Below, piece after piece: positions 14,301 to 20,300 of a DNA stretch of 64,000 bases. Made by a program: the position numbers. Every line of letters starts with the position of its first letter. Positions within the stretch are counted from its first letter, which is position 1. Source of the DNA: a virus (Duplodnaviria; Heunggongvirae; Uroviricota; Caudoviricetes); the IMG/VR virus record IMGVR_UViG_2529293141_000015, positions 1,630-65,629 of that record. The stretch is one strand, 5' to 3'.

Positions 14301-17300
14301 GTTCCGTAGTGAGGTTTGAGCATGACAAATCCTCCGGTTAATTAATCCAGATATTTAATTTAATCCCCGATATGTGGTCGGGGATGGGGTTAATTAAAGA
14401 TTTACGTTGAAACCAAAGCGGGAAGACTTTTCTGATGTACGGGAAATATCCAGCAATTTACGGCGCATTTCTTCCGTCAGATGCTTGAAGGCGTTAAATT
14501 CGGCGACAGCGGCGTCAACGTTATAGCCTTTGCTGTGTAGCTCATTGAGGATGCGCATAGTTGGGCTTGGCATATCGAAGAGCACGGAAGCATCAAGGCT
14601 GATAACCTTGCGATCAACATAGTTCATCGTGGCGTAGGGATGGTTATCTGAGAACCACGAGAGGGGGTAGTTGATGTTCATCGCAGGAGAAGACAGGGCC
14701 AGTTGTTTCTGTTCCCATAGTTGTTTTTCCATGCGATCGAATTCAGCAATGTAGGCTTCTTTGAAAGCAGCGGCTTTTTTACCAGTGAATCCCATCACCA
14801 GGAAGACGAATCCGTTTTTGGTGATTTGGTACATTGGGCGTTGTTCGCCTTTGGCGTCGGTGTAGGTAACGTCCGCAAAATTGCGGGCGTTAAATTCCGT
14901 AGAACAATCCATCAATCGGATTTTTTTTAAAACGTCGTCGTGCCGCTTGTCAAAAAATTCAGCAATAGCAATAGACGTTGTGACAACGCGACCATTGGTA
15001 ATGGTGATTTCAGGTTGAGAAAGGGCAGGGATAGTAGCCATAATGGCAGCCTCCTTGATTGGTGATTGAGAACCACCGCAGGAGGTCCTAAGCTCGCTGG
15101 CGGTGGACTGTACAGGGTTAGGACTACTGGCAATCAAGGGAACCAGCCCGACCGAAGTCGGCCCCATACAGCCCACCATTGATAAGATGTGCGTGTATGT
15201 CGATACAAAAAAAGACGCTGGCGCGTCTGTATCGCCTCGATTGTCAGCGGGGCCCTAATCCCGACACCCGTTTTATAAGGTGTTCGCCAAATATAGCCCC
15301 GACATCACACGCAGTCAATACCGTCCTTTCTCGGAAATGCTTTGGCGGTGCCGCCTGCACCCCAAAACATTCCCTGTATTTGGTCAGCGCCAACTTCCTG
15401 CCAGTGTTGCCCGTTCTCACGCCGTTCTCGCTCTCGCGCGGGGATACTCTCTCATCGACCGGATCGCACCCGATGATACAGCACGTTTACGTGTAGGGGT
15501 CTAAACAGGTCATTGACGCTGTAAAGCTCCAGATTGTTAAAGAGCATTTTGCGGCGGGTTAAGTCGCGCCGTACGACTGATTTATGTAGCCCTGTGTAAG
15601 GGCGCGATGTTTCTGGCTTGAAATAAATATAACTTGCGGTGATTTTCATGTAAATACCGTTGGTGCTTTTTGAGGGCGAGAAATTATTACTTAACTGATT
15701 TTTAAAGTGATTTATTTTTTAAGGGGGCAGATAACAGGAGGGGATATGCAAAGAAAAACCCGGCGCATGGGCCGGGCTATTTATCTGGTCCTGTTCTCAT
15801 TCAGTAGAGTAGGGGCCAAGAAATCGCACTCCGTTGAAGTGAATAAGATGAGAAGGTGCATCAGCCACCCATACCTCTGTTTCCCATGCGATTTCACCAA
15901 GATATCGCCCCATGATGGAGCGATTTGGAAAAGCGGTCACATAGACAAGTCCGGCTGTTGATCCGGCAAACAGCCTGGCAAGCTCAGCATGCCGCTTCCC
16001 ATCAACCGGTCCATGACTGGTGACAGACTCAACCAGTAGCAGCCAGTTTTTCGCAGTAAAATGTAGCACCACATCTGGCATTTTACCGTGTGAATCCACA
16101 TCAACACCTAGCCCGGCCAGCAGTGGAGCGTCGAAGTAGCCCCACTTTTCGCCAGTGTCGCCAGCATAGACCAGCACGCTACCCGGAGCAAAACGTGGGG
16201 CGAAGTCCTCTATTATGGCACGGATAAGTTCGCTGTGCTCGCCGGGACTGAGGGTTATTTGCTGGCCCGCAGCAATTTCAACAGGGATACGATTCTGTTC
16301 GCGCTCCTTAGCATAGCGGGTAACCAGCGTTTCACGCTCGGCTAAATAGGTTGCAAGGCTATCGTGCCATGCCGGGCTGCCGAAAGTGCGTAGCATGGAC
16401 AGAGCAGCAGGTTCGATCTGATAAACAGCCTTCGGGCTGTTCACTGGGCGATCGGGCTTGTCCGGATTGTAGAGGGCTACTCCAGCAGCGCAGAACTGAT
16501 GCATAGACTGGCGGCGGAATGTCTCACGAGTATTGGGTGCGTAGACCTTGCCGTAGTGCTCCCGAACCCAATTCATGATTGGTGTAATGCCCACAAGCGG
16601 ATTTTCCGCGTCGGCCCATGCTTTTCCCGGTGTGAGGTTCAGGAGTGCCAGCAAACACAAAGCAGAACGCTCATTCTGCTGCGCTCTGGGCAGGCCTAAG
16701 GATGCTATAATTTGCTGAGCGGCCTCAATATAATCATTTTGGTTGTTCATGCAGTCAGAGCTCCTAGCTTAGCGTCAATATGTTCTTGCGTGAGAGTTTC
16801 TTGTTGCATAGCCCACTTGCCAAGCTCTATCAGAGTGTCACGGCTTGGGTACTTAATCATCTTGAGGTCGGTTGCATTGACCTGTGTATGCCCGTTGAAG
16901 CGACGGAAGTACTTATCCACTGCGGTAGTGTTCAGGAACACGGCCAAGCCACGGGCCAGCGCCTCGGGTAACCCATGTTTGTTCTCATGAAACACGTTCA
17001 TGTGATTTTCAAATCCCAACACTGAATACTCACTGAAGGTAGCAGGATCAACGACGCTTGCTACCACTCGGCGCTTTTCCTCCTTCGACGAGAAACGACG
17101 CACCACACAATAAAAACCGTTCGGGTAAAGCCACTTTTCTGTCTCGTCGTTGCGCATGATTGCGTTGGGTTTCTTCAAACCTTCCACAGGCCAGACAGTG
17201 CTACTCATACTCAAATGGCTCGGGTAGATCAGGGGAACAGTTCCTTCTTCTGGCATGCTGCGCAAATGAGCTTTCAGTCGGAAATCAACTATCGGTCCGG

Positions 17301-20300
17301 TCGATACCTTCACGCCAATATCAGCCAGCGAACATTGTACGGCAGATGATAACTCAATGGTGCTTTTCTCGAGCGTGGTCGGCACATGAATAAACCGCTC
17401 CGAATCGTCCGGGTACACAATCTGGTCAAATGGGTGTTCGTAGGTGACCAGGTCAAAAAAGCTATCATCGGTCGAAGTTGTGACTGTAACAGCCTCCTGA
17501 CGGCCTCCACGCTCCAGGCGGATGATAATATTTTCCTGCAACACATCGTCATCCCTGAAAGCTTTGCTACGTGATTCGAACAAATGAATATGGCGGATTG
17601 CTGCCCGCTCAAGTATGAAATTACGGAACGGACGGTAATACGGTCCGTTGCAGAAACTACGTGGGATTATGGCCACTATCTGCCCGCCAGGTGCAACCTC
17701 ACCTACAGCCAGTGCAACAAAGGCGGAATACAGATTTACCGTCTCGATACCGACAGTGCGAAGAGCCTGCCGGTGGGCTGACTGGCTATTGATCTTCTTG
17801 TAAGGCGGATTAAGTATTGCATGGGTATAACCTCGATCCTGTAGACCTTCGGCGGTTGCCAGCTCAATATAATCCCCTTCGATGATGCGGGGCGTCACTC
17901 TCCTGTACCCGGTTAAGTGCTTCGCAAGGTGACCACACAGCTTTTTGTCGATTTCGTAGGCTGTTGCCTCGACAGACTCAAAGCCAAACTCGCCAACCAG
18001 CCAACGGTCGAGGAAGGCGCAAGACAGTGCGCCTAAACCAGCGCCTGCGTCCAGTAGACGGCAAGTTTTCATTGTGCTCGGTGGAAACAAGGAGGCCATA
18101 AAACGGGCCACGCCAGAAGGCGTCATGAACTGGCCGAACTCTGCTTTGTGTTTACGCGCGGTACGGGGAGACAGCTCGCGACGCACGCTGTCTGCGACGT
18201 CTAGCTTTTGAAGCATAACTAATCCTCTTTACGTGGCATGATGATGCCAACGTGCTTTTGACATCCTCCACATTCTTCAGGCGTGAAGGATGTCAAATCA
18301 CTCTGTGAGCTCAATCAAAAGTCTCATCATTCCACTGCGATTTGATGACCTTTCCGACAAACTGGCAGTTTTCGTTACACTCAATCATGTCGAATCGTGG
18401 GTTGAGCGGCTCCAGGTACGCTTTACCGCTCTCACGAATGAATCGTTTGAAGGTAAATTCATCGCCGTTCATTCGGGCCACGCAAAAATCGCCATCCTCG
18501 ATTTCCCGTTCAGGGTCAACGAGTATCAGCATACCTTCAGGGAAGCTGGGTTTACCACCCTGCGGTGCGGTCATTGAATGCCCCTTGACCTCCAGCCAGA
18601 ACGACCTGTCACTGGCTTTTGTGGTGGTGGAGATCCATTTAATCGCATCTTTTGCGGTGTACGAAATATCATCCATTGAGAATGCGCCAGCTTGTACGCA
18701 GGAGAGTAACGGATATTCGTAAGCGGGGACACGAGTTAATGGCTCTTCAATTGCGAGCGCCATTTCTGCAATAGATTTTGCCAGGCTGGGACTGAAATCT
18801 CCGACCTTTACATTCAGTATCTTAGCAAGCTGTGCTGCGTGGCTGGCATTTATGGCGTTGATGCCAGCCATTAGCTGATTAACAGCGCTTTGGGTAACAC
18901 CTAATTCATAGGCTAATGATTCCTGCGACAGGCCTAACTCTTTCTTTTTAGCGTTAAAAATACTTTTCAGACGCTTGGCGTCTTCCAGTTGCTCAGGGGT
19001 TAACGGTTTCTTTTTCATGTTCATACCATATCACCTTTGGTTATATGTAATGAAATATCTGCGGTGTTGACATTTTAATAACTGTGCGTAATGATATGGG
19101 CATTTTGAAGGAGTCAGTTATGGCGATGAAAAAAGAGACCCTGGCTGATTACGTATACAGGTTCGGCCAAAAGAAAGCCGCTAAGGACTTTGGCGTGGCG
19201 CAGAGTGCAATCAGTAAAGCGCTTCTCGTCGGACGAGAAATATACGTCAAAACCTTTGATGACGGCACAGTTGAGGCGGAAGAGGTTCGTCCGTTCCCTG
19301 CGTTCGTAAGAGGCGATGATTAATCCTGGACACACAGCCCATCGGAGGTGTGAGTGAACAGGCAAATCAAAACGGTTATGCCCGAGCAGTACTGTGATGC
19401 TGATCGGGACTGGATACAGGAGCAATTGTTACAGCTAGACCCGACCACCCGGGTAAAAATTGCAGCAGAGTACGCGAGAGTGTACCAGGAAGAGTGGGAC
19501 AAGGAGCCTGTATCGTTCAGGAAGGGCAACAGGGCAAGACGGAGCGCCAACACCCGGTTACGGGTGTATGTCCAGAAGTACGCGAGAGCCAGCCGTGGCT
19601 GGATGCTTTCGCCAGTAGCGGTACGGAAGTTTCCCCCGACACCATGATGGCGGTTAGTTGCGCTAGAGATAATTTCAAGTGCAACTAATTTCCTGAAAGG
19701 AAGCGAGGAGGGGGTAAGGGGGTGGAGTCGTTGGTAAGGCCTGTATCCCTTGGCCTAGGCCAGAAGGCAGGTACATAGGTTAGGTAGATCACTGTATAAG
19801 CGCGCGATAGTTTCTGGTGAAATAATTATCGAGCTAACTATTGAGTGATAAACTATGTCAGCAGCAACCAAATCGGCACTGATCCGTACACTGAGCACTG
19901 TACCACTGAGAACAGAGGAGCGTTACAGCTTTCTGGCTGATGTTGTAACGATCCTTGAGTCACAGGGGATGCATGTGGCAAGCAATGTCACAGTAAGAAT
20001 CGATGGCAGAAATTTCCGTGTTGATATTCTCGCAACAGCAAAAACTGGTGGGAGTGTGGCTATCGAGATCGATCGTAGCTCTCCGCGACCCCGCTCAGTC
20101 ATGAAATTGCGTGAATTGGCACGTCGTGGCACTGAAGGCTTTGTGTTGCTTCGAATGCCAAAGAAACTGACCAGTTATAGCGATGCTGGGATCGATATCA
20201 TCCCGGCGAATGGCAAGGGGGCGTCATGCTGAAAATCACCCCAAACTTTGCTCAGGAGCGCGGTTTAAACCAGCTGCGGCACCAGTGGAAACAGCATCGC

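Follow-up and report, generated by a model that had tools for sequence, protein, structure and literature searches.

In bacteriophage lambda, the segment between the repressor gene cI and the promoter PL is occupied by rexA-rexB, a gene pair co-transcribed with cI from the promoter PRM. The closest described counterpart of the locus considered here is EcoGIII, a restriction-modification (R-M) system carried beside cI by the Shiga toxin (Stx) 2a phage of Escherichia coli O104:H4 (Phi-stx104, P13374 or BAA2326 phage). We analysed a stretch of 64,000 nucleotides (nt) of Caudoviricetes DNA, positions 1,630 to 65,629 of IMG/VR record IMGVR_UViG_2529293141_000015 (hereafter the window), in which a DNA methyltransferase gene (M) and an endonuclease gene (R) follow cI on the same strand. 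This pair is very probably the EcoGIII system (M.EcoGIII/R.EcoGIII), that is, an orthodox type II R-M system of PstI type, specific for CTGCAG, carried as immunity-region cargo of an Stx-family lambdoid prophage and probably read through from cI.

Much is already known about EcoGIII. According to PMC3893438, which cites Fang et al. 2012, the base modified by M.EcoGIII cloned from strain C227-11 is the A of CTGCAG, the R gene has biochemical activity, and CTGCAG is methylated at 98.8% of sites in a carrier strain versus 0% in a strain without the system. The other source that cites Fang et al. 2012, PMC6602927, reports 100% CTGCAG methylation as N6-methyladenine (m6A), effects on 1,951 genes and on growth, and protection by EcoGIII from lambda-like phages; in these two sources, single-molecule real-time sequencing data put m6A at 98.8-100% of CTGCAG sites in carrier strains, and cleavage of CTGCAG is reported for the C227-11 enzyme (again citing Fang et al. 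2012). As to the position, Chakraborty et al. 2018 (PMC5977221) described a BsuBI R-M system left of cI, where lambda has rexA-rexB, and a bsuBI system in the cI region is also mentioned in PMC4587872. The initial annotation of the window, made from the sequence alone, had proposed an R-M system expressed in lysogens as a defence; methylation, endonuclease activity and phage protection are documented for identical proteins in PMC3893438 and PMC6602927. Since the rexAB-slot position is stated in PMC5977221, the central idea of that annotation was already in print: the literature already covers the system, what it does and where it lies, and the finding is not new. It concerns a documented case, known since 2012, of a prophage that gives a major outbreak pathogen both anti-phage defence and a new methylome, and its interest here lies mainly in calibration, raw sequence alone having sufficed for the correct recognition of a complete type II R-M system in a lambda-like setting. 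The modest descriptive increments are the exact boundaries of the cassette, its promoterless plasmid origin, a PL/OL1 candidate and the exchange of cargo in the slot.

The identification rests first on near-complete sequence identity. The M, R and cI proteins show no amino acid (aa) difference from those of phage P13374 of the 2011 E. coli O104:H4 outbreak, and over window positions 15700-19100 only two nucleotide differences from this phage are found, both silent and both within M. Over 4.4 kb around the pair, identity is 99.5-99.8% to P13374 (99.5%), TL-2011c, Ss-VASD and GER2, and at least 99.2% to the other listed Stx-phage records, most of which, where annotated, label the genes as BsuBI/PstI methylase and endonuclease beside cI. 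Complete O104:H4 genomes match at 2600 of 2601 nt, as inferred from bit scores, and among 5,426 complete E. coli genomes 140 carry the pair, O104:H4 included; the exact M and R proteins each occur on at least 1000 public contigs. In a collection of 50,697 phage records, 98 carry the M-R pair and 98 likewise the cI region, and the BsuBI/PstI nuclease family is confined to this one lineage. R is identical to the C227-11 deposit at 316 of 317 residues; the differing residue, 203 (window 16142-16144), is V in that deposit (P0096) and W in the window, in P13374 and in the variant found on at least 1000 contigs, and V203 may be an error of an early draft assembly.

The proteins themselves agree with this assignment. 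The translation of M reads in the motif order X-I-IV of the gamma class, with FGQFMTP at aa 27-33 (18118-18138), LDAGAGLG as motif I at aa 55-62 (18031-18054) and NPPY as motif IV at aa 136-139 (17800-17811), followed by 350 aa C-terminal of motif IV. The PADLOC model MTase_II (PDLC03227, profile length 494) matches M end to end over residues 1-489 (5e-248), and Pfam Eco57I matches it at 3.3e-9 (37.5 bits, cut-off 25.3); in a search of M against NCBIfam, every match lay far under its cut-off. R is covered by two Pfam families, both matched over their full length, namely PF17728, an N-terminal helix-turn-helix (HTH), DNA-binding domain, over residues 7-143 (1.2e-54, 184.4 bits, cut-off 27), and PF06616, the C-terminal catalytic domain, over residues 155-307 and profile positions 1-153/154 (4.6e-61, 205.2 bits, cut-off 27), while NCBIfam assigns R to no family. 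The SdaI structure 2IXS matches R in sequence over residues 8-315 (1.2e-77), a level of similarity at which R probably shares the SdaI fold. R is read as a two-domain endonuclease, winged HTH plus a variant of PD-(D/E)XK, encoded separately from M. The two genes overlap by 4 nt, ATGA, at 16750-16747 (sequence ...gactgcATGAacaac...), and one PADLOC model, 840 aa long, finds both proteins in tandem. The initial annotation had read the same three motifs as those of a gamma-class N6-adenine methyltransferase, noted the ATGA overlap of two co-oriented genes and tentatively called the 317-aa partner a BsuBI/PstI endonuclease; all of this holds, and the profile hits it anticipated (Eco57I or N6_Mtase for M, BsuBI_PstI_RE for R) were obtained with Eco57I above its cut-off, with PF06616 and PF17728 both matching and with the PD...E core of R conserved. 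Among the relatives that share 40-62% identity with R, many are 800-886 aa long (e.g., P0136, P0139 and P0140) with the nuclease part C-terminal, which suggests from their sequences that they are M-R fusions.

Both flanks of the pair can be aligned with lambda. The repressor cI (Pfam Peptidase_S24, 9.5e-29; HTH_3, 8.2e-10) is 61.4% identical to that of lambda over 236 aa and Cro is 60% identical; the OR region matches lambda OR3/OR2/-35/OR1/-10 element by element in the same order, and it includes the operator sequences at which PMC5977221 reports DNase I footprints of the BAA2326 repressor; there, OR1, OR2 and OR3 are all footprinted and PRM is described as repressor-activated, weak and giving a leaderless cI mRNA. 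At the opposite edge, an intrinsic terminator begins 19 nt past the R stop codon and is 85% identical over 34 nt to lambda 35797-35829, a segment that overlaps the rexB stop codon and continues downstream; judged by this alignment, it closes the cI-M-R unit and is the counterpart of the lambda post-rexB terminator. The clean terminator placed at 15751-15776 by the initial annotation is thus real, its coordinates being off by a few bases. In PMC5977221, OL and the N gene are said to be “not readily identifiable”, with some ~1 kb of apparently non-coding DNA following; a candidate PL/OL1 can, however, be identified by homology to lambda, the elements of the PL region aligning with lambda OL2/-35/OL1 in the same order. 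The symmetry of the footprinted OR1 yields the pattern ATHAC-N5-GTWAT, which occurs in the 64 kb at OR1, at OR3, at 15629-15643 and at one unrelated place (0.63 matches expected), and, as the third of these lies between the PL hexamers, it is taken as the OL1 candidate. The unrelated match, a perfect palindrome ATTACGCCCAGTAAT at 55354-55368, is far from the immunity region and may be due to chance. An OL/PL-like operator had been expected directly after the terminator: the best-supported PL and OL1 lie ~100 nt beyond it. A 15-mer that does abut the terminator (15731-15745) is a candidate distal operator on weak evidence, as it fails the OR1-derived pattern and fits only a looser one, ATCNCC-N4-GTTAT, whose three matches in the 64 kb all fall within the immunity region (0.05 expected) and which is post hoc; this second pattern, being derived from the very sites it finds, was dropped in favour of the OR1-derived one. 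Given the 61% identity of cI, the resemblance of the terminators and the PL/OL1 alignment, the slot is, on these sequence comparisons, homologous to that of lambda and not merely analogous to it, and the rexAB-equivalent position claimed for the R-M pair, also stated in PMC5977221, is borne out on both flanks.

The limits of the inserted DNA are provided by plasmid relatives. The E. coli plasmid pG5A4Y217 (NZ_KJ541071) is homologous to the window from 18257 to 15789, with 84% identity over 2,470 nt; these limits define a cassette of 2.47 kb, 15789-18257, which sits exactly between the hairpin that follows cI and the lambda-type terminator. On the plasmid, the 40 nt corresponding to the M leader are the end of a recombinase coding sequence (1456-2025) that stops 10 nt before the M start codon, and the phage cassette keeps these 40 nt of the recombinase gene together with 8 nt past the R stop. 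Judged by this remnant, the cassette probably derives from a plasmid recombinase-M-R module and arrived without a promoter region. Plasmids of Pseudomonas, Aeromonas, Citrobacter, Serratia and E. coli encode R proteins 94-95% identical to that of the window with M adjacent, their cassette DNA being 83-84% identical over 2.4-2.5 kb with the same 4-nt M/R overlap. They differ from the phage copy in what surrounds it: the recombinase gene stands immediately upstream of M in pG5A4Y217, whereas the Aeromonas plasmid p1 has other upstream sequence, and both plasmids examined carry, 17 nt after R, an open reading frame (ORF) of 82 aa that the phage copy lacks (L011 1456-4720; L012 2035-4720). The pG5A4Y217 cassette adjoins, besides the recombinase gene, a class 1 integron integrase, and in a 9-kb Aeromonas plasmid the cassette adjoins qnrS2.

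Comparison with other prophages brackets the same region from outside. In 23 phages, Lys12581Vzw for example, only the 3' half of cI is shared and the R-M system is 95.7% identical; homology of the Lys12581Vzw type to the window breaks at 18722, 15778 and 15632, positions that bracket the immunity-specific parts, and the immunity swap of Lys12581Vzw replaces window 15633-15777. In PhiR12_3 and E. coli G6/7, cI is kept and M and most of R are gone, window 16114-18256 being replaced by 160 bp of unrelated sequence with its right breakpoint at 18257, so that a 100-aa remnant of R is left (L003 2501-3032; L007 4524-5055). In further prophages that are syntenic and have the same cI region, the slot holds different genes: UCPROB-001 carries a small membrane protein, a serine proteinase of the SDH family (Clp fold) and HicAB, while FHI_NMBU_10 and strain 48 carry a 56-aa ORF and HicAB, the HicAB pairs lying on the opposite strand. 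Lys12581Vzw has, in addition to M and R, a SocA/Panacea pair bracketed by a second terminator nearly identical to that of lambda; the partner of its SocA/Panacea-domain protein is 126 aa long and belongs to no Pfam family. These arrangements are evidence, at the level of sequence, that the cI-to-PL slot exchanges cargo among related prophages.

In lysogens, by this identification, M methylates every CTGCAG of host and prophage and R cuts incoming unmethylated DNA, and the prophage thereby shields its host from other phages and alters the host methylome; others have demonstrated these steps by experiment for identical proteins. Within the window, CTGCAG occurs at 14 sites, all at or beyond 22114; the two sites pointed out previously, near 22112 and 31953, are found at 22114 and 31953. 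No site is present in 1-22113, where 5-10 are expected depending on the model, the under-representation amounts to a z score of -2.2 to -2.4 (rank 3rd to 5th of 64 six-base palindromes), and the probability of a gap as long anywhere among 14 random sites is 0.04. Selection for the avoidance of CTGCAG is not claimed, since z is modest and the sequence is the same in relatives that lack the R-M pair. Addiction-module behaviour is known for type II R-M systems (Kobayashi and colleagues), and a rival reading places the main selected role of the pair not in anti-phage defence but in the stabilisation of the prophage, through the death of cells that have lost it, and/or in epigenetic regulation through CTGCAG methylation. 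The toxin-antitoxin pairs that relatives hold in the same slot (HicAB, SocA/Panacea) fit such a role, as do the 1,951 genes with changed expression and the effect on growth in PMC6602927; the protection from lambda-like phages reported in the same source (citing Fang 2012) speaks for defence, and PhiR12_3 and G6/7, natural derivatives without M and most of R, show that loss of the pair is survivable. A predominantly non-defensive role is unlikely on this balance, with the qualification that defence, addiction and regulation are not mutually exclusive.

How the two genes are transcribed can be approached from the 94 nt that separate cI from M, of which 40 nt are the recombinase coding remnant and 39 nt form the hairpin. 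The predicted RNA fold of this gap has a free energy of -36.3 kcal/mol (z score -3.67). PhiR12_3 and G6/7 retain the hairpin stem but have another loop; in other cargo variants this position is taken by other hairpins, of which only those of the HicAB variants have a U-rich tail. An Rfam match to MIR394 in the gap was rejected (E 0.36, 23 bits against a cut-off of 60), as it reflects the hairpin only. Promoter scans, performed as consensus matching, detected no minus-strand sigma-70-like promoter with at least 8 of 12 consensus matches from 19060 to 18217, a scan that also missed PRM, and no minus-strand terminator was found between cI and M. From a leader of 40 nt derived from coding sequence, together with the lack of a promoter or U-tract terminator between PRM and M, we infer that neither M nor R has its own promoter and that both would be read through from cI, that is, from PRM. 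Between the cI stop and the terminator there is no further minus-strand ORF that could encode a C-protein controller, M and R filling the cassette; with M placed first and its stop overlapping the R start, the arrangement should favour methylase over nuclease at establishment, and the phage would presumably need to self-methylate on induction.

Several observations weigh against the identification of the pair as EcoGIII read through from cI. The window prophage lacks stx and hence is not the phage that was studied, though its immunity region is protein-identical; attenuation or processing of the transcript could occur at the 16-bp hairpin that follows cI; and, as the consensus scans missed even PRM, the absence of promoter matches is weak evidence. 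Moreover, PRM is weak, with ~18 repressor molecules per cell (PMC5977221), and complete methylation in spite of this leaves room for a further promoter. M and R might then form a self-contained module beside cI, driven by a promoter independent of cI and PRM: the plasmid copies must be expressed without cI, a perfect TTGACA opens the hairpin (18297-18292), the hairpin could stop part of the PRM transcripts, and a weak PRM (PMC5977221) has to be reconciled with the complete CTGCAG methylation given in PMC6602927. This TTGACA has no -10 partner, however, the stretch from the PRM region to the M start codon contains no promoter with 8 or more of the 12 consensus matches, the gap of 94 nt is largely taken up by remnant and hairpin, and in pG5A4Y217 (L011) the start of M only 10 nt after the recombinase gene suggests that the cassette is normally read from upstream. 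An independent promoter is improbable, somewhat more so than a non-defensive main role. We tentatively hold, as a prospect not far short of even, a joint reading in which a promoterless cassette was taken up from a plasmid recombinase-M-R module and placed exactly between the post-cI hairpin and the lambda-type terminator, so that the R-M genes would be driven only by the weak autoregulated PRM and would be off at induction, and in which attenuation or processing at the conserved hairpin would fix how much R-M is made relative to cI.

The active site of R calls for a separate comment. PF06616 has been placed in the PD-(D/E)XK superfamily (PMC3424549), and E248-A-V-K251 of SdaI aligns with E241-S-V-T244 of R. 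In an alignment of 72 sequences (R and 71 representatives at 33-67% identity, taken from a library of 50%-identity representatives), P225 is conserved in 72/72, D226 in 71/72 and E241 in 68/72, and position 244 is T in 43/72 (the family consensus) and K in none; T being common there and K never seen, the motif of R is the family norm, and a K-to-T “defect” was rejected. That R is inactive, the lysine counterpart of SdaI K251 being a threonine and the pair in effect an orphan methylase, is accordingly very improbable, given this consensus and the retention of P225, D226 and E241, an uninterrupted ORF with its own Shine-Dalgarno sequence, and identity to the P13374 protein, the C227-11 R gene being reported as biochemically active in PMC3893438.

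Outside the immunity region, the window prophage is a stx-negative, short-tailed lambdoid member of the Stx-phage family. An stx operon is absent: after Q (23812-24345; PF06530, 2e-50) come a match to the small RNA STnc100 (24683-24896, 198 bits) and, directly behind it, an ORF of 672 aa resembling SASA-family esterases (25000-27018); no tRNA gene was found anywhere in the window. Downstream of PL, a boxA of rrn type (TGCTCTTTAACAA, 15534-15546 on the minus strand) is the sole exact copy in the window and lies ~75 nt downstream of the predicted PL start, as estimated from the -10 hexamer; no N gene is present downstream of PL and boxA. The isrK-C4 pair at 15096-15283 fills much of the “~1 kb non-coding” DNA of PMC5977221, and its isrK has a promoter-like site just upstream (15318..15290) and a terminator-like site at 15228..15213. 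At the position of the Rha/Ash-family gene, P13374 has two Rha-type genes and antB2 (L001 1465-3180), and a stretch of 233 bp, window 14443-14675, matches two places in P13374; from these sequences, the region in the window has the appearance of a product of recombination from which ~0.7 kb, with ORF26 “antitermination” and antB2, is missing. The coordinates of the features are collected in Table 1.

Table 1. Features of the cI-PL slot and of neighbouring DNA (window positions, except where a comparison locus, L, is named).
Feature	Position	Strand	Description
cI	18311..19024	-	237-aa repressor, lambda cI homologue, 94 nt upstream of M
Post-cI hairpin	18259..18297	-	TTGACATCCTTCACG-loop-TGTGGAGGATGTCAA; starts 14 nt after the cI stop, no U-tract; cI-side edge of the slot
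M leader	18217..18257	-	~40-nt remnant of the recombinase gene 3' end, small hairpin, Shine-Dalgarno AGAGGA
M gene	16747..18216	-	489 aa, gamma-class N6-adenine DNA methyltransferase, CTGCAG, M.EcoGIII type
R gene	15797..16750	-	317 aa, BsuBI/PstI-family type II restriction endonuclease, R.EcoGIII type
Intrinsic terminator	15747..15778	-	Stem of 8 bp with 6 G-C pairs, 15778..15757, then T-run TTTCTTTGCA
Operator-like 15-mer	15731..15745	-	ATCCCCTCCTGTTAT; abuts the terminator; candidate distal operator, weak evidence
PL-like promoter	15626..15664	-	TTTACA 15654-15649, 17-nt spacer, TATATT 15631-15626; promoter scan
OL1 candidate	15643-15629	-	ATCACCGCAAGTTAT; between the PL hexamers; predicted
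OL2-like site	~15664-15648	-	Predicted
OR region with PR	19029..19095	+	OR3 core 19030-19044, OR2 19055-19071, OR1 19078-19094
PR	-35 TTGACA 19067-19072, -10 AATGAT 19090-19095	+	Promoter scan
isrK	15283..15208	-	Rfam, 60.3 bits, above gathering score
C4 RNA	15183..15096	-	Rfam, 78.9 bits, above gathering score; overlaps the Rha/Ash gene start
Rha/Ash-family gene	14394-15179	-	261 aa
Second isrK	3884..3811	-	Rfam, 53 bits, above gathering score
Second C4 RNA	3785..3702	-	Rfam, 70.1 bits, above gathering score
Alternative slot cargo loci	L005 2798-4918; L006 4019-4893; L008 4013-4887; L004 1470-2320		Syntenic prophages

Set beside the known systems, the locus is closest to EcoGIII of the O104:H4 Stx2a phage, with which it shares gene order, the ATGA overlap, the place left of cI and the flanks; it differs from P13374 in the absence of the stx operon and of tRNA genes between Q and the esterase gene and in the ~0.7 kb of the Rha/antB region that it lacks. 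With rexA-rexB of lambda it has in common the slot, by homology of the flanks, and the strand of cI; the cargo is different, RexAB being an abortive-infection system unrelated in sequence and mechanism to a type II R-M pair, and where lambda has N after PL the window has the rrn-type boxA, isrK- and C4-like RNAs and a Rha-family gene. The specificity reported for EcoGIII, CTGCAG, is that of PstI and BsuBI and forms the core of the SdaI site CCTGCAGG, SdaI differing by a lysine where R has T244. The tandem order of M and R is shared with BsuBI, whose genes Xu et al. are said to have described in 1992 as tandem M-R, the PstI genes reportedly being divergent. Finally, EcoP1I of phage P1 is likewise a complete R-M system on a temperate phage, said to shield the lysogen from other phages, but it is a type III system and is borne by a plasmid prophage, outside any cI-PL slot.

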